Source: a bacterium (GTDB taxonomy: Bacteria > UBA8248). Taken from it: a stretch of 64,000 nt of DNA. The notes under the pieces were generated by a model. It worked only from the letters and a program-made list of their open reading frames with translations, was not told the DNA's origin and made no database searches. Below, one piece after another: positions 45,149 to 57,006 of this stretch (its first letter is position 1; every line of letters starts with the position of its first letter). The DNA lies in contig OZ253442.1 in NCBI GenBank assembly GCA_965261085.1, forward strand, positions 2,880,001 to 2,944,000, given 5' to 3'. A program made the translations under genes and the position numbers.

Positions 45149-45946
45149 TTATTTCGGGAACCACGGCAAGTTGAAGTCCGGGTTCTTTCCGAACCATTTT
45201 CTCCAGATGGCGTGGTATTTCTTCGTCTCCCACAACTCGAGAATGACGTTGTTGACGTAATCGCGCCAATCCGAGTCGTTTTCCCGAAGGCCCATACCAT
45301 AAGGCTCGATGGTGTAGAGTTTGCCCGGAACGATGAGATCCGGGTTATTCGCCTGCAGCCACTGGAGGAGAATATCGTCCGTCACCATGGCGTCCACCTT
45401 CTTCTGCTTGAGCGCAAGGAGGTTCTCCGTGTGCTCCTGGAAGGGAACGATGATGGCCTTGGGCTGGACCTTCAGTAGGTTGGGGCCGGAGTTTCCGCCC
45501 TGAACGGAGGCGACGCGCTTCCCGGCCAACTGAGAGATGTGCTTGATGCCGGTGTCCTTGCGGGTGATGAAGCGCTGCCCCGTGATGAGGTAGTGCATCG
45601 AGAAGTCGATGACCTTATCGCGCGCGCGCTTGTGCGTCATCGTGGCGGCGATCAGATCCACGTTGCCGTTCACGATCAAGGGTATGCGCGTCTTCGAAAG
45701 CGCCTGGACGAACTTCACCTTCACGCCCAGCTTCTTGGCGATCTCCCTGACGAGATCCACGTCGAACCCATCGGGCTTCCCTGTTTTCTTGTTGATGAAG
45801 CCCATGGGAGGAAAGTCGAACTTCACCCCGGCGACCAGGGTTCCCCGCTTCTTCACCTTCTCGAGTACCGATTCGGCCGATTCTCCGCTCACGCCCAAAG
45901 ACAGCGCGAATACGAACAGGATCAATCCGAGTAACCATCGTCTCAT
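45149..45946 (-). CDS. Amino acid ABC transporter substrate-binding protein (SBP family 3)
   Basis: RGTLVAGVKFDFPPMGF, GFDVDL, RIP, IDFS, EPYGMG. Confidence 0.92.
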   Translation of the reverse strand: MRRWLLGLILFVFALSLGVSGESAESVLEKVKKRGTLVAGVKFDFPPMGFINKKTGKPDGFDVDLVREIAKKLGVKVKFVQALSKTRIPLIVNGNVDLIAATMTHKRARDKVIDFSMHYLITGQRFITRKDTGIKHISQLAGKRVASVQGGNSGPNLLKVQPKAIIVPFQEHTENLLALKQKKVDAMVTDDILLQWLQANNPDLIVPGKLYTIEPYGMGLRENDSDWRDYVNNVILELWETKKYHAIWRKWFGKNPDFNLPWFPK

Positions 45947-50364: not shown

Positions 50365-50391
50365 TTGACAAATAAATTATCAGTTTGTCAA
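50365..50391. promoter_or_regulatory. Inverted-repeat operator overlapping a TTGACA -35 box
   Basis: TTGACAAA-N11-TTTGTCAA in the AT-rich region upstream of the radical SAM gene. Confidence 0.55.
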
Positions 50392-50463
50392 AAAATATAT
50401 TTACTTTCGTTATATTTTCGTATATATTTCTTCCTCACGCCAATTCACACTGGGAGAACAATC

Positions 50464-51708
50464 ATGGTGACGGAAAAAACCCTCCACAAACTGACCATAC
50501 TCGGCGGACAATCCTTTGACGACAGGGAGGGCCCGCCCGGCATGCGGAAGAAGCCCATATACCGGCGAAAATTCCTGGCCTCGGACACGCCGGCGATATT
50601 TCCGGTGCCCTTCTCCGGCGGACGCATCATGCCGCTTCTCTCCACCATGATGACCAACGCCTGTAGCTACGATTGCCACTACTGTCCCATGCGCGCCTCG
50701 CGCAACATGCCCCGCTACGCCTTCAGCCCGGAGGAGTTGGCCGACACCTTCATGGCGCTCAAGAAGAGAAACCGCGCCGAGGGGCTTTTCCTCACCAGCG
50801 GGATTCCGGGCAGCGGCGTCACCGGGGTGGACAGGATGATAGCCACGGCGGAAATCCTGCGCTTCAAGCATCGTTTTGGCGGCTACATCCACCTCAAGAT
50901 GATGCCGGGGGTGGAGGACTCACAGCTCATCCGCGCCGCCCAGATAGCCACGAGGCTCTCGGTGAACCTCGAAGCCGCCACCCAGAGGGGTCTTCACACC
51001 ATGGCGCCCGAGAAGAAACTGGAATCGGACTTAAAACCCGCCCTGCAGTACGTGGGCAAGATGGCGCGTGAATCGTTTATCGAGAGAACGGGCCTCATCA
51101 CCGGCGGCGTGACGACGCAGTTCATCGTGGGCGCCAGCGGAGAGAGCGACATGGACGTGCTCTCGGCGTCTCATTCGCTCCAGAAGAAGGGCCTTCTGCG
51201 CCACACGCATTTCAGCGCCTTCAAGCCCGTAGAGGATACGCCCATGGACGGCGTGCCTTCCGTCTCCAAAACACGCGAGCACAGGCTTTATCAAGCGGAA
51301 CACCTCTTGCGCGAGTATGAGTTTCGGCTCGATGAGATTCCTGTCGCAGACGGCAATCTCGCCCTGGATGAAGACCCCAAGACGACCTGGGCCAGACGGA
51401 ACCTCTCGCAATTCCCTGTGGAGATCATGACTTCAGACCCCCGGGCCCTGATGCGCGTGCCGGGCATCGGCCCCACATGGGCGAAACGACTTGTCGAGGT
51501 GCGAAGAAAAGCCCACATCCGCGATTTCAGGGACCTCGCGCGCCTGGGCCGCATTCGCAAATCGGCGGCGGGCTGGCTCTCGCTGCGCGGCAAACGCCTG
51601 GGGCCGGAACCCGTGCTCGCCACGCAGTTGAGTCTCGGCCTGCAGCACAGGGGCAAACGGCGTGTTCATCCCTCGAGAAACATGCTGCCGCCGTGCTCTT
51701 TTCGCTGA
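50464..51708 (+). CDS. Putative DNA modification/repair radical SAM protein with HhH domain (TIGR03916-like)
   Basis: TNACSYDCHYC, GLFLTSG, FGGYIHLK, RLSVNLE, TQFIVGA, REHRLYQAEHLLREY, RVPGIG. Confidence 0.88.
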   Translation: MVTEKTLHKLTILGGQSFDDREGPPGMRKKPIYRRKFLASDTPAIFPVPFSGGRIMPLLSTMMTNACSYDCHYCPMRASRNMPRYAFSPEELADTFMALKKRNRAEGLFLTSGIPGSGVTGVDRMIATAEILRFKHRFGGYIHLKMMPGVEDSQLIRAAQIATRLSVNLEAATQRGLHTMAPEKKLESDLKPALQYVGKMARESFIERTGLITGGVTTQFIVGASGESDMDVLSASHSLQKKGLLRHTHFSAFKPVEDTPMDGVPSVSKTREHRLYQAEHLLREYEFRLDEIPVADGNLALDEDPKTTWARRNLSQFPVEIMTSDPRALMRVPGIGPTWAKRLVEVRRKAHIRDFRDLARLGRIRKSAAGWLSLRGKRLGPEPVLATQLSLGLQHRGKRRVHPSRNMLPPCSFR

Positions 51709-51832: not shown

Positions 51833-51907
51833 GGCCCCTTCGTCTAGCGGTCAGGACACCGGCCTCTCACGCCGGTAACAGGGGTTCGAGTCCCCTAGGG
51901 GTCACCA
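51833..51907 (+). tRNA. tRNA-Glu (anticodon CTC)
   Basis: Acceptor GGCCCCT/GGGGTC+ACCA; anticodon arm CCGGC-CTCTCAC-GCCGG; T arm AGGGGTTCGAGTCCCCT. Confidence 0.96.
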
Positions 51908-51933: not shown

Positions 51934-52578
51934 TCAACCCCAGGAATTCAGGTGGACTATCTCATCGAGCGGGCGCCTTGTGGCGGGCTTGAAATTCGTC
52001 CCGATCGTATAGGCCACCGGAATGAGCGCCACCTGCATGAAATCATCCGGCACGCCGAGGAGTTCCGCCGCCTCCGCCTCGCACCTCAGGTGCAAGGTGG
52101 TGAACACCGAGCCCAGCCCGCGCGAGCGCAGCGCCAACTGAAAACTCCACACCGCAGGTATGACCGACCCCAAAAGGCCCGCCCACATGAACCTCGGCGG
52201 GTTTTCGGGCAGAAAATTCTCGATGCAGGGAATCACATGCACGGGGGAGCGCTCGATATTCTCGGCAAGATAGAGGGCGGAATCGAAGACGCGCTCGTTT
52301 TGCGCGGACCCGCTTTCTCGCGCCTGCGCCATGCCTTTCTCCAGATAGTCTCCGGTTCCTTTGCGGTACAACCGCCCGAGTTCACGGCGTATGCCCTCAT
52401 CCGTCACCACCAGCCAGCGCCAGCCCTGCCGATTCGAGCCGGTGGGGGCCTGAAGGCCGAGTTCCAAGCATTCCATCACGACCTCTGTCGGCACTTCGCG
52501 CTCGAAATCAAGGCGCTTGCGCACGGAGCGCGTCGTGGAGAGAAGTTTATCGGTGACTTTCAGATCAAAATCCGTCAT
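51934..52578 (-). CDS. Nitroreductase family protein
   Basis: TTRSVRKRLD, QAPTGSNRQGWRW, LALRSRGLGS. Confidence 0.92.
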   Translation of the reverse strand: MTDFDLKVTDKLLSTTRSVRKRLDFEREVPTEVVMECLELGLQAPTGSNRQGWRWLVVTDEGIRRELGRLYRKGTGDYLEKGMAQARESGSAQNERVFDSALYLAENIERSPVHVIPCIENFLPENPPRFMWAGLLGSVIPAVWSFQLALRSRGLGSVFTTLHLRCEAEAAELLGVPDDFMQVALIPVAYTIGTNFKPATRRPLDEIVHLNSWG

Positions 52579-52736
52579 GCGGTGCTCCTTTCAGCTTGTT
52601 GTAATGATTTCAGGTGAGATAGGGCATGTTACCAAAACAACCGGGCTCGCGTAATGCGCCGCGCTCTCAGGTTCCCAAAGAAGGTGCAGTTCCTCTATAA
52701 TCCCCCAAAATTCCGATAACGAAAATGAGGAAAACC

Positions 52737-53419
52737 ATGACGAACCAGGCAAGTCAGACGAGCAAAATCGAGTTGCTCGACCCGGAGGACGCCACGGGAG
52801 ATACGGCGCGCTACTTCGAGGCGACGCGCGAGTTTTTAGGCCGCATCCCGAATTCCGCGCTCGCGCTTGCGAACACGCCCTACATCGCGCGGTTCTACCT
52901 TCCCTTCAACGCCACGCTCCAGCGCGAGGGCATGGGCGGGCTGCTGACGTGCAGGATAAAGGAGATCGTCGTCCTGAAGACGAGTTTCGTGAATTCCTGC
53001 GCCTACTGAATCGCGCACAACACGGCGCTTGGTCAAGCGACGGGAATCACGGACGCGCAAATCGAGGCCATCGCCTCGGATGATTACATGACCTCCCCGG
53101 TTCTGAATCCGCGTGAGCGCGCCGCCTGCCTGTGGGCGGAGCATTTTACGAGAAACACGCGCGCGAGAACCCGGGCGTGTTGGAAGAAGTGAAGCGGCAC
53201 TTCACCGACGGCGAGATCGTCGAGATGTCGCTCATGAGCGGTAAGCAGGGCATGATGAACCGCTTCATGGATTCGTTCGGCATCCCCATCGAGGATGAGG
53301 GCGAGGTGAACAAGATCAGGAAATCGGTGCGGGGCAACCCGGACAAGATGAAGGCCTACCTGCAATCGCTCATCGACAACTGGCCCGAGGATTTCCCCGA
53401 ACCCAACCCGGACGAGTAG
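52737..53419 (+). CDS. AhpD/CMD-family selenoprotein (CxxU), with a 1-nt frameshift near 53160
   Basis: KEIVVLKTSFVNSCAY-TGA-IAHNTALG...RERAACLWAE continues in frame; C-terminus (KRHFTDGEIVEM...NRFMD) lies in another frame; SECIS-like hairpin at 53026-53039. Confidence 0.8.
53010..53045 (+). other. Putative bacterial SECIS element
   Basis: CGCTT-GGTC-AAGCG stem-loop; loop starts with G, 22 nt after the in-frame UGA. Confidence 0.65.
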
Positions 53420-53438
53420 GCATGCTCCAGAGAGCAAG

Positions 53439-53608
53439 TGCGGGCAAATGCGGGGTTCTTGGATAATTTTTTAATTCGATAAATTTCGATAATTATCTAA
53501 TGTTCTACTTTAATATAACTCTACATTTACATGAATTATAATAGATTACCATGGTATTTATAGCCATAAACCTTTTCATGTATTTATCGATATTTATCGT
53601 ATTTTTCA
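53439..53608. repeat. AT-rich 170-bp dispersed element, copy 2
   Basis: Collinear with 7052-7221. Confidence 0.85.
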
Positions 53609-54007
53609 TATCAATCGCGACTGATGAAGGAGCGATTGCGGTTTGCGCGTCCCCGAAGGAGCCTGAGAGTTTCATCGCCCCGATGGATTCGCCGAGGTGC
53701 GCGTAGCGCGTGATGTTCGCCCGCTCCGTCCGCTCCGTCCGCTTCGCCGGGATGAGAACATCGCTTGAAATTCCCTGCGTCATCGCCTCTTCCCCATGAA
53801 GGCCGCACAAATTCGACCGCCCTGCCTGCTCCGCCCGCCTCGCCCCCAAGGAGAGAGCGGGCCGCTGCATGAAACCCTCATTCATCAATCGGGTTTGACT
53901 CTATCGAAACGCCACGATTCGCCGTCACGCCAAATGCGGGGAAATGCGTGATCAAACCCGACCTGTTCCGGGAGCATCGCCGTCCCGGTGTCAAACGCGA
54001 CCACTGC

Positions 54008-54289
54008 GGGGTTGTTGAAAAAGACCCCTTTTTAGAGAGTAGAGGGGACACCCCTTTCGACTGGTAAAACCAACCCCCCTGTCCCCCCTTGTCAGGGGGG
54101 TAAAGGCGATGCCCCCCGACGAGGAGGTGGAAGAAAAGCCCCCCTGACAAGGGGGGACAGGGGGGTTAGTTTCCAGCCGAGGGAGGGCGAGCGGGACGGG
54201 TAAAGTACTATTCCCTCCGACTCCCCCCCATCCTTCCTTGCCATGAACCCCCCAACCCCCCTTGTCAGGGGGGCTTTTTCAACAACCCC
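54008..54289. mobile_element. MITE family B copy
   Basis: Terminal inverted repeats GGGGTTGTTGAAAAAG / CTTTTTCAACAACCCC; first ~90 bp nearly identical to 17125 onward. Confidence 0.8.
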
Positions 54290-54456
54290 GAGGAGCGAGC
54301 GTTTGCCGATTGAGAAAGGAGGTCGAATCCGACTGAAAAAGGAGGATTCGCGAAATCCCGGCGAATGAAGAATCCCCTCGTTCGGGATGCTTCGTACTCC
54401 TCGCGGCATTCAACATCCCCTAATGCGCAATCTTTCTCGTATGGCGCGTCCCATGC

Positions 54457-54546
54457 TTGACAGTTACCCATATTGTATTATATTTTACCTGCCATTTAAT
54501 AATTTACTTGACAATTCCCTTTCTTGTCTTACAATTTAACCTGCCA
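54457..54546 (+). promoter_or_regulatory. Tandem sigma70-like promoters
   Basis: TTGACA at 54457 and 54508; TACAAT at 54530; ACCTGCCA at 54487 and 54539. Confidence 0.55.
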
Positions 54547-54822
54547 GTCAATTTCGGACCCAACTCACCTACATAGCAGCCCTTTTCGGGCAGCCGCAAC
54601 GAGGCGTATTCCTTGCGGGATTGCGCGTGAACTTTATGTCAATCCGCAAGCTGTTTACGACCTCCCAGAGCCGTCGATCGGGATGGTCGAGATGTTGCCG
54701 CCTTAAATGGATGAGGTTGCGCCGGGAGGTAGTGTTGTTTTCCCCCTAAGGTCCGATCTCCATCCATACCTTGCGCGCCACACTCCTTGACCAGGAAGGC
54801 GCTCGCAAAAGGGGGAAAGGAA

Positions 54823-57006
54823 ATGAACAAAAATAGACTGCGAATCTCGATTATCGTTCTTCTGGTGGCCGTGGCCGTCGCCTCCTTCGGTTGCGGCGGT
54901 GGCTCCGGCGCCAACCCGGCGGCAGGCGGCGATTTCATCACTGCCGTGGTGCCGGGCGCAGGCTCGACGTCCGGCAGTGAAAGCAAAAACCCTAGCCCTG
55001 GTGATCCGCCATCGAATGGAGACGGGGGAAGAGGGTCCGGCAGCCCCACCCACTCGACGTCTCTTGGCGGAGGAAACGGGCCCGGCAGTTCGACGCAAAA
55101 TACTCAAATCGAGAAAGAACCACCCCCTATCGGCTTTCAGTTAACAGATGATTTTCAGGAAGAAAATTATCCTCTGCCTTGGGAGCATGGCCTCTTCGAG
55201 GGCCGGATTGTATTGTTTGCCGGCAAATCAGAAAAGCATGGCAACTTGTTAATTACGTGTCCTTCGGGCCGCAAGGCATGCATCTTAAACGTCGGCTCTG
55301 ACGGCTCGTTGTCCTACGCAGTAAGCAACGGCCTGCCCAGCTTTACGCTTATCCCAACCGAGGGATTTCCAGACATCCCGTTGCCGCAGCCCAACGAAGC
55401 GGCGCAGGCGCCTGTTGTCGAACTCGATTTTGGAAGCACCCTGCACGTGGGGTCCAACGTCGCGCCTCGGGCCGACGAGTTGACCACAGGTGTCGACCGC
55501 AACGGAGTGTCCGTTTCATACGGACAGGTTCGGGACGGCATCGGGGCGAACGAAGTCCTCGAATTTATGAATTTACACGTTAGTCTTGAAGATAAGATTA
55601 CCCATGGTGGTGTGGGAGGCGCCCCGGGTCTCGAAACGTTTCCCGAACCGCCGACCATCCGCCTCGCCGAGGGAACCAGCGATTCATACGCCCGGTTTAC
55701 GGCGCACGCCGTTCAGTTGATCAACAACGCCTTGCCCTATGAGAAGCGCATCACAATCAGCCCGGAGGCTTTGCCGATAGATACGGAATTAGGTGACCTC
55801 TCGGAGGGAGAGATTTTTCTCAATTTCGGTTCGCTCGCATCACGCACGCTAGGGGGCGCCAAACTTTTAAGCAGTTACAATGAAAATCAAGAAGAAGTTC
55901 AAAAGGCATTAAAAGCCCTTGTCACTATAAATGAACATCAAATGCGTAAGGCCTTTGTGTATGACCCCCCGCCGGACCCGGTTGAGAATACGCCGGAAAA
56001 CTGGGAAACTATTTTAGAGGAATATTGGGGTTCAAAATATCCGGATAGCCGGGTTGAGAATTCAGACACGATCATCAAATTTTACAACGACAGGATATTC
56101 CTTTCAGTCGTTGTTCATGAAATCATGCATGCCCTCGGCTTTTATCATACCGACGAAACTAGAAATACTAAATCAGTCATGCATCCCATTGTAAACGAGG
56201 GCCAAGTAAACGTACCTTCACCTTACTTGCCCGAGAACTCGCTCGTTATCATAATCCCCTTGCAGATTGTTAACCTGACTGACGAGGAAACAACTGTGCC
56301 CGTGCTCGAGGCAACAACAGCTCAACTTGCACTCGAGGCGACAACAGATCAGCCCGAACGCAATTCGCCGGGCCGCCTCGCCACAGCAGATGCTCGATCC
56401 GTACCCGGGCATAACCTGTTTCCTCTCGACAGGGCGGCCCTGCTGGCGGCCTACGGCAGGATCGATCCGGGCACTCAGCCGGATGAACTGACGGCGGAAA
56501 ACCTGGGCGCCTGGACCGACAGGTCGTTTCACCTGCGTGGGGATGTGGATTTTCCGGGCGGACAGGCTACTTTCGGCGTCGCCTCTAGCAACGGCCTGAT
56601 CCAGCCCTGGGCATCGGGCCCGACGCCTTGGACGAACCTGGCGGATAATCGGGTGTTGCCGGGAAGCGCTACCTGGAACGGCGCGCTCCTGGGCATCACT
56701 TCTTCATTGGAAACGGTCGCAGGCGACGCCCGCCTCTTCGTGCGGTTGAGGAACCTGAATGGGCGAATCGACTTCACCGGCCTGGAGAAATGGGGGGTGA
56801 ACGAGGCGCCGGGAGAGGCCGGTAGCGGTACGACGTGGGACGATGGCGATCTGGGATACACAATCGAGGTTCGCGGCAATACATTCATCCAGACCGGCGG
56901 AGACGACGGCAAGGTAACCGGCGCGTTCTTCGGCGTCGCTCACGAGGCGATGGGCGGCGTACTCGAACGCGCCGACCTGGCGGCGGGCTTCGGCGGGAAG
57001 CGATAA
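54823..57006 (+). CDS. Lipoprotein with metzincin zinc-protease motif and TbpB-like C-terminal barrel
   Basis: Lipobox SFGC, G/S/P linker, HEIMHALGFYH with Met-turn SVMHP, C-terminal ATWNG...VTGAFFG...MGG...GFGGKR. Confidence 0.7.
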   Translation: MNKNRLRISIIVLLVAVAVASFGCGGGSGANPAAGGDFITAVVPGAGSTSGSESKNPSPGDPPSNGDGGRGSGSPTHSTSLGGGNGPGSSTQNTQIEKEPPPIGFQLTDDFQEENYPLPWEHGLFEGRIVLFAGKSEKHGNLLITCPSGRKACILNVGSDGSLSYAVSNGLPSFTLIPTEGFPDIPLPQPNEAAQAPVVELDFGSTLHVGSNVAPRADELTTGVDRNGVSVSYGQVRDGIGANEVLEFMNLHVSLEDKITHGGVGGAPGLETFPEPPTIRLAEGTSDSYARFTAHAVQLINNALPYEKRITISPEALPIDTELGDLSEGEIFLNFGSLASRTLGGAKLLSSYNENQEEVQKALKALVTINEHQMRKAFVYDPPPDPVENTPENWETILEEYWGSKYPDSRVENSDTIIKFYNDRIFLSVVVHEIMHALGFYHTDETRNTKSVMHPIVNEGQVNVPSPYLPENSLVIIIPLQIVNLTDEETTVPVLEATTAQLALEATTDQPERNSPGRLATADARSVPGHNLFPLDRAALLAAYGRIDPGTQPDELTAENLGAWTDRSFHLRGDVDFPGGQATFGVASSNGLIQPWASGPTPWTNLADNRVLPGSATWNGALLGITSSLETVAGDARLFVRLRNLNGRIDFTGLEKWGVNEAPGEAGSGTTWDDGDLGYTIEVRGNTFIQTGGDDGKVTGAFFGVAHEAMGGVLERADLAAGFGGKR

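Follow-up and report, generated by a model that had tools for sequence, protein, structure and literature searches.

The window analysed here, a stretch of 64,000 nucleotides of bacterial DNA, contains a gene of the AhpD/CMD family whose reading frame is interrupted by an internal TGA. It lies next to a nitroreductase-family gene on the opposite strand. The features of the locus are as follows.

51833-51907, forward strand: tRNA-Glu with anticodon CTC, between a radical-SAM-like open reading frame (50365-51708) and the nitroreductase gene
51934-52578, reverse strand: divergent nitroreductase-family gene (PF00881, E 2.8e-20)
52672-52701, forward strand: candidate sigma-70-like promoter (TTCCCA, 18 nt, TATAAT), within the divergent intergenic region of 158 nt
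52727-52731, forward strand: GAGGA, resembling a ribosome-binding site, 5 nt ahead of the ATG at 52737
52737-53419, forward strand: probable AhpD/CMD-family selenoprotein gene, 683 nt here, with the stop codon TAG at 53417-53419
52998-53000, forward strand: TGC codon of Cys88, first residue of the C-x-x-U redox motif, as read from the sequence
53007-53009, forward strand: in-frame TGA at residue 91, probably read as selenocysteine (orthologue alignment, Cys homologues)
53024-53041, forward strand: putative SECIS hairpin, in which 53026-53030 pairs with 53035-53039 around the loop GGTC at 53031-53034 (paralogue alignment A1)
53157/53158, forward strand: 1-nt deletion, where a single C of CC is absent (extra C in 11/11 orthologues)
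53190-53192, forward strand: TGA, the first stop of the original frame after the deletion in translation
54787-57006, forward strand: open reading frame of 739 residues with a zinc-protease-like H-E-x-x-H-x-x-G-x-x-H motif and an N-terminal hydrophobic segment

The two central genes point away from each other, as a sequence-only reading of the window had proposed, and this arrangement is kept: a nitroreductase-family gene adjoins the orthologue in divergent orientation at 12/12 loci. The best solved relative of the neighbour is an uncharacterised nitroreductase (E 5.7e-13), and iodotyrosine deiodinases are found among its weaker PDB matches. Identities as BluB or as an F420-type enzyme were considered and rejected, with scores far below the cut-offs.

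On the other side, directly 3' of the gene, positions 53420-54786 form about 1.3 kb without a convincing open reading frame. This stretch contains inverted self-similar segments (73-74% over 129-152 nt).

The orthologues start at the same ATG as the one at 52737, according to their alignment, and both the promoter-like site at 52672-52701 and the GAGGA before the ATG fit a start at this position. The promoter candidate matches at 10 of 12 positions and is a weak one, 1 site being found against 0.6 expected from shuffled sequences. In metatranscriptome run X16, one contig covers 52720-52881, which is a weak hint of expression.

An internal TGA at the redox motif

The codons of the motif run TGC, GCC, TAC and TGA (53007-53009), followed in frame by ATC, GCG and CAC, which specify I-A-H. 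Under translation table 11 the open reading frame closes at 53009. The halt falls exactly on the second redox position of C-A-Y-U, where the sequence-only reading had placed it. If the TGA is read through, the translation continues as V-N-S-C-A-Y-U-I-A-H-N-T-A-L-G-Q..., which is family-like. The claim that such sequence continues in frame is correct directly after the TGA and fails farther on, where the frame is lost at the missing base at 53157/53158.

Membership in the AhpD/CMD family, also claimed earlier, is borne out by the family model and by the fold. The N-terminal 139 residues score 32.4 bits against PF02627 (CMD), whose cut-off is 23, and a full-length orthologue scores 32.1. An AlphaFold model computed on 27 sequences (pLDDT 94.7, pTM 0.91) has the all-helical AhpD fold and places the motif C88-A-Y-U91-I-A-H94 at the start of a helix spanning residues 89-101. 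Foldseek returns 34 PDB matches at E <=0.001. Those listed are all of AhpD/CMD type, with TM-scores to the target of 0.73-0.82, and the values for solved AhpD-like proteins are 0.78-0.82.

The TGA is conserved in related genomes. Exactly one is present in the best match of 22/22 genomes of the same genus (82-94% identity) and of 2/2 other genomes of the family. Each of the matches listed has one TGA, and two of them also carry TAG; the listing covers all but 116 of the matches. More distant members of the class, represented by five genomes, have a TGA in 29 of 34 matches. When 11 orthologues from the same genus are aligned, the TGA column is identical in all 11, and every frame stays open for 227 codons (684 nt each).

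These 11 orthologues also tell how the sequence on either side of the TGA evolves. Ahead of it, the variable sites at codon positions 1, 2 and 3 number 14, 7 and 42 of 90 each; past the SECIS zone they number 10, 8 and 52 of 116 each. The excess of variation at third positions past the TGA argues that the downstream part is translated in the same frame.

Homologues that have a cysteine in place of the TGA provide another line of evidence. Of 1.84 billion representatives searched, 2024 matched at E <=0.001 and 24 of these at <=1e-30. Alignment A2 comprises 26 full-length homologues, namely 25 matches from this search and P0009. The column of the TGA holds Cys in 15 of these 26, so that Cys or TGA occupies it as the earlier reading had led one to expect. 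The Cys88 column holds Cys in 12/26, and the whole C-x-x-C is likewise present in 12/26. An example is P0023, which has 50% identity and the motif C-S-Y-C. In the remaining 11, the selenocysteine column is occupied by S, T, L, G or M; nine of these are open reading frames of 301-362 residues, and the rest are the shorter P0034 (230 residues) and P0043 (205 residues). Most homologues (24/26) keep the His at +3 from this column.

Some of the long homologues have an unusual layout. In P0018-P0022, P0026-P0029 and P0032, open reading frames of 301-362 residues consist of the C-terminal part of one copy followed by a complete second copy. In nine of these ten, S, T, L or G occupies the selenocysteine column of the second copy; P0018 has Cys there, and Ser replaces its first Cys. 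P0025 (293 residues) shows the same two-copy layout with a shorter first part and has Cys at the selenocysteine column. Judging by their protein sequences, the ten may have two domains, with the first one cut by gene callers at its own TGA.

Probable selenocysteine decoding and the downstream hairpin

The genome encodes the machinery that reading UGA as selenocysteine demands. As the earlier reading had proposed checking, selA (579 bits), selB (384 bits), the tRNA-Sec gene selC (75.9 bits) and selD (336 bits) are all present, each over its curated cut-off. The selD gene (locus L011, G000:C1:3459-4421, reverse strand) itself has one in-frame TGA, in the expected N-terminal motif V-K-A-G-G-U-G-S-K, and farther downstream a hairpin of its own, whose loop is G-rich. 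TGA is also the commonest stop codon of the genome, ending 1448 of 3099 open frames of at least 300 codons, and no internal stops were found in selA and selB. TGA is therefore not a general sense codon in this genome.

The hairpin behind the TGA, described in the sequence-only reading as a CGCTT-GGTC-AAGCG stem-loop, is present at those positions. Its stem CGCTT/AAGCG is extended by an outer pair, G53024-C53041, beyond a G/A mismatch, and the first G of the loop lies 22 nt past the A of the TGA. In the copy studied here it has 5 pairs and -4.8 kcal/mol.

Looked at in a single copy, the hairpin is inconspicuous. The 54 nt past the TGA, folded alone, give z = 0.34; among 200 shuffles, 122 equal or surpass this fold. 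The single-sequence fold does not pick the hairpin, since the region has a different minimum-free-energy structure. An Rfam scan of 52900-53150 with E up to 10 returned two chance-level matches and no SECIS family. Genome-wide, hairpins of at least 5 pairs with a GGTC loop trail a TGA 1-9 times per offset at offsets of 15-39. Nine occur at the offset of this family, and 8 of these 9 belong to family members. Taken alone, a GGTC hairpin after a TGA is not significant. The weight of this one comes instead from its conservation in register and its covariation.

Both can be seen when the paralogues of this genome are compared. In alignment A1, the 75 nt around the TGAs of the 10 paralogues align without a gap, and RNAalifold selects exactly this helix. 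Counted with 7 pairs, the helix is paired in 85.7% of cells, compared with 67.4% in shuffles, and it has 15 cells with a double change, compared with 5.8; none of 500 shuffles reaches either value. Five of the 7 pairs have changed on both sides, a number that 33 of 500 shuffles equal or exceed. Control helices slid along the alignment are paired in at most 50%. The hairpin is thus kept with compensatory changes across paralogues, a point on which the earlier reading had asked for a check.

The loop is GGTC in nine paralogues and GGCC in one, and in 10/10 it starts 22 nt past the UGA. The closing pair is U-A in five and C-G in five, and it couples the third base of a Leu/Val/Phe codon with the second base of a Gln/Arg codon. 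At 4 of 5 TGA-bearing loci from other genera of the class, the hairpin is present with other stem sequences; the fifth locus, L050, fell outside this check since its motif did not match the pattern. In the Cys paralogue of this genome the hairpin is absent. The Leu-Gly codons contribute to both stem and loop, and since these two residues are also conserved in Cys homologues, the protein accounts for some of the conservation at the nucleotide level.

These observations suggest how the UGA could be decoded. SelB carrying Sec-tRNA(Sec) would bind the hairpin whose GGUC loop starts 22 nt past the UGA, and would thereby bring selenocysteine to the ribosome, competing there with release factor 2. 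The codons of the conserved segment H-N-x-x-L-G-Q/R make up the hairpin, which accounts for its same register in every paralogue.

The SECIS element of E. coli fdhF can serve for comparison. It, too, is a hairpin soon after the UGA with the four-base apical loop GGUC, of which the G and the U contact SelB. Conservation of the loop is expected for recognition by SelB. In contrast to fdhF, the loop here lies 3 nt farther from the UGA, the stem is shorter (5-7 pairs), and no conserved bulged U is seen.

Taken as a whole, the column of Cys and TGA, the selenocysteine machinery and the covariation of the hairpin support the earlier proposal that the UGA is read as selenocysteine. The gene would then encode an AhpD/CMD-fold thiol/selenol oxidoreductase of approximately 227 residues with the motif Cys88-x-x-Sec91. 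The probability of this reading is put at about 0.9.

The missing base and other readings of the locus

Through the 1-nt deletion at 53157/53158 the C-terminal third falls out of frame, and the product as written would therefore be truncated. As assembled, the read-through product would have 151 residues: the last 76 are missing, and 11 out-of-frame residues are added at the C-terminus. Beyond 53190 the original frame meets many more stops, and the family-like C-terminal part sits in another frame, in the open reading frame 53132-53419.

Near-identical environmental contigs of two public runs from two studies, X1 (depth 48.8) and X4 (depth 41.7), have a C inserted behind 53157, which leaves their frame intact, and show the TGA unchanged. 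With 15 and 24 further differences from the window, respectively, they represent other strains and do not settle the base in this genome. An identical sequence was sought in the contigs of four runs and was not found there; X11 is without cover at 53127-53157.

Two local explanations of the shift were discarded. The T run near 53150 is refuted as the place of the shift by the orthologue alignment, which puts the missing base at 53157/53158. A programmed frameshift was dropped because 11/11 orthologues need none.

From the sequence comparison, the missing C would be either an assembly error or a very recent inactivation. In the latter case this copy would be a freshly broken pseudogene of this strain, with a real deletion and a truncated, probably unstable product. 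The deletion is indeed present in the assembly, the extra C is present in 11/11 orthologues as well as in the two environmental contigs, and with nine other TGA paralogues in the genome the loss of one would be tolerable. No other decay is visible, however: behind the shift, 88 codons of the correct frame run uninterrupted as far as the normal TAG, and they retain 95.6% amino-acid identity to the closest orthologue. The genome is moreover a single contig of 4.27 Mb, which would fit assembly from long reads, where indels of one base are frequent, and P0010, the orthologue in another assembly, is shifted at a different place. A broken gene is thus conceivable but rather doubtful. Single-base indels seem to be common in assemblies of this group. 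P0010 has 106 residues, comes from a 17-kb contig and has its frameshift near residue 62.

The remaining alternatives concern the TGA itself. A near-cognate tRNA might insert Trp or Cys at the UGA, with the hairpin only slowing termination. Such selenium-free read-through is very improbable: the position corresponds to the nucleophilic redox site and is Cys in homologues, the genome keeps the full selenocysteine pathway, including a SelD that is itself a selenoprotein, and besides the stem, the loop is conserved as GGUC or GGCC. It is scarcely credible that TGA 53007 is a genuine stop that separates an N-terminal protein of 90 residues from a C-terminal CMD fragment, for although gene callers yield 90-residue fragments (P0002-P0008) and NCBI names the 140-residue C-terminal fragment P0017 a CMD family protein, the break would fall inside the redox motif and inside a single folded domain, the TGA aligns with the Cys of full-length homologues, the downstream part lies in the same frame without a gap or a conserved start, and all four genes for the selenocysteine machinery are present.

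Selenocysteine thus remains the preferred reading of the UGA. In all probability the locus is a genuine AhpD-like selenoprotein gene, belonging to a kind already described, that has been split wrongly by gene callers and is frameshifted in this assembly. In public gene calls it appears as an unnamed fragment of 90 residues and a fragment labelled "carboxymuconolactone decarboxylase family". In this family alone, such splitting leads to a tenfold under-annotation of what these bacteria have in redox capacity.

Paralogues, subfamily and known relatives

The sequence-only reading had presented a single hidden selenoprotein. That it is a selenoprotein is supported, but it does not stand alone: the family has 10 TGA-bearing members in this genome, alongside one paralogue with Cys and another that lacks the motif. 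The other members of the family in the genome are as follows.

G000:C1, TGAs at 45199, 788367, 1024772, 1237162, 2392660, 2816790, 3470987, 3985070 and 4208593: nine further TGA paralogues, scattered round the chromosome
3112092-3112544, reverse strand: Cys-form paralogue
847468-848019, forward strand: paralogue without the motif

The motifs of the nine further paralogues are C-A-Y-U, C-D-Y-U, C-E-Y-U, C-K-Y-U, C-D-F-U, C-E-I-U and C-N-N-U. Two genomes from other genera of the class, G029 and G032, have 8-13 family matches, nearly all of which contain a TGA; two contain 2 TGAs. Several family matches lie less than 1 kb apart (on G029:C23, in G032 at 4257649/4258302, and on G033:C53).

Only two points of the system are unusual, namely its tenfold expansion and the conservation of the nitroreductase neighbour. 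One model would join them. The hairpin within the motif might have let one AhpD-like CxxU selenoprotein expand to approximately ten paralogues per genome, since a SECIS placed in the codons of H-N-x-x-L-G-Q/R would leave each duplicate decodable. The copy studied here and its divergent nitroreductase would then work together in selenium-dependent reductive detoxification, perhaps by dehalogenating brominated metabolites of sponges, in analogy with the CMD-family debrominase Bmp8 and with selenocysteine deiodinases. This combined model is speculative and improbable as a whole. Leads towards it are the relation to Bmp8, the iodotyrosine deiodinases among the weak matches of the neighbour, and the labels of some runs. 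Three runs that possibly hold the stretch are labelled sponge metagenome, and two of them cover parts of it at 90-99% identity.

The dehalogenation chemistry of Bmp8 is cysteine-based. Bmp8 has the same fold as the protein here (PDB 6ohi and 6ohj; E 2.6e-6; Foldseek ranks 19-21), and according to the entry title a complex with tribromopyrrole has been solved. At approximately 20% identity, it is a lead only.

Within the AhpD-like proteins, the family appears as a relative of several known models rather than a member of them. A full-length orthologue scores 55.4 against TIGR01926 (peroxidase-related enzyme, cut-off 81.8), 55.2 against NF053654 (YciW-related selenoprotein, cut-off 310) and 29.2 against NF041238 (AhpD-related CFYUT selenoprotein, cut-off 175). 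These scores, all below the cut-offs, indicate a subfamily without its own model.

That AhpD-like selenoproteins exist, as the earlier reading had stated, has been in print since 2005, when 27 AhpD-like CxxU sequences were reported from the Sargasso Sea (PMC1088965). In the GOS survey of 2008, AhpD-like proteins rank fourth among selenoprotein families, with 299 genes of "AhpD-like 1"; the survey assigns "AhpD-like 1" to COG2128 and "AhpD-like 2" to pfam02627 (PMC2398784). A 2026 review includes AhpD-like (TIGR01926), CMD-like (PF02627) and AhpD-related (NF041238) CxxU selenoproteins (PMC13188914), and the database BSepDB (2026) has an AhpD-like family (PMC13326102). A literature search, which covered papers rather than BSepDB entries, found none on this subfamily or its expansion.

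Table 2 of the BSepDB report gives 48-54 selenoprotein genes for uncultured "Nitrospinota" (GTDB phylum UBA8248), a number that puts them in the top ten of bacteria (PMC13326102). One matching fragment, at 81% identity, is labelled Nitrospinota bacterium, and the genome studied here may belong to that group. The present results fit this report of selenoprotein-rich related uncultured lineages. They add a subfamily without its own model to a known selenoprotein family, and show clearly how a SECIS element can lie inside a conserved coding motif and co-vary there across paralogues. What is known of selenocysteine decoding itself is unchanged.

By sequence, the best solved relative of the protein is PA0269/AhpD of P. 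aeruginosa (PDB 2ijc, 2o4d and 7xw1), which matches residues 73-183 of the full-length orthologue at E 1.7e-15. Its N-G-C-A-Y-C stretch aligns with the motif here, and it has the same fold, with TM-scores to the target of 0.78-0.81. PA0269 has Cys where the protein here has selenocysteine, and its His is at +4 rather than at +3 (U-x-x-H-N). With 145 residues, it is without the N-terminal 70 residues and the C-terminal tail of the protein described here.

The chemistry of the AhpD family suggests possible catalytic roles for the two residues. Sec91, at the N-terminus of its helix, would act as the nucleophile towards peroxide or another oxidised substrate. Cys88 would resolve it to a selenenylsulfide, and a reductant would recycle the pair.

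The closest published counterparts are the marine AhpD-like CxxU selenoproteins. As described in the reports cited above, they share with the present family the CMD/AhpD domain, selenocysteine in the second position of C-x-x-U, widespread Cys homologues and a small hairpin with a G in the apical loop just past the UGA. The subfamily here is set apart from the published AhpD-like sets by model scores and features rather than by sequences. It has a His at +3 after the selenocysteine and a C-terminal extension of approximately 40 residues that ends in W-P-x-x-F-P.
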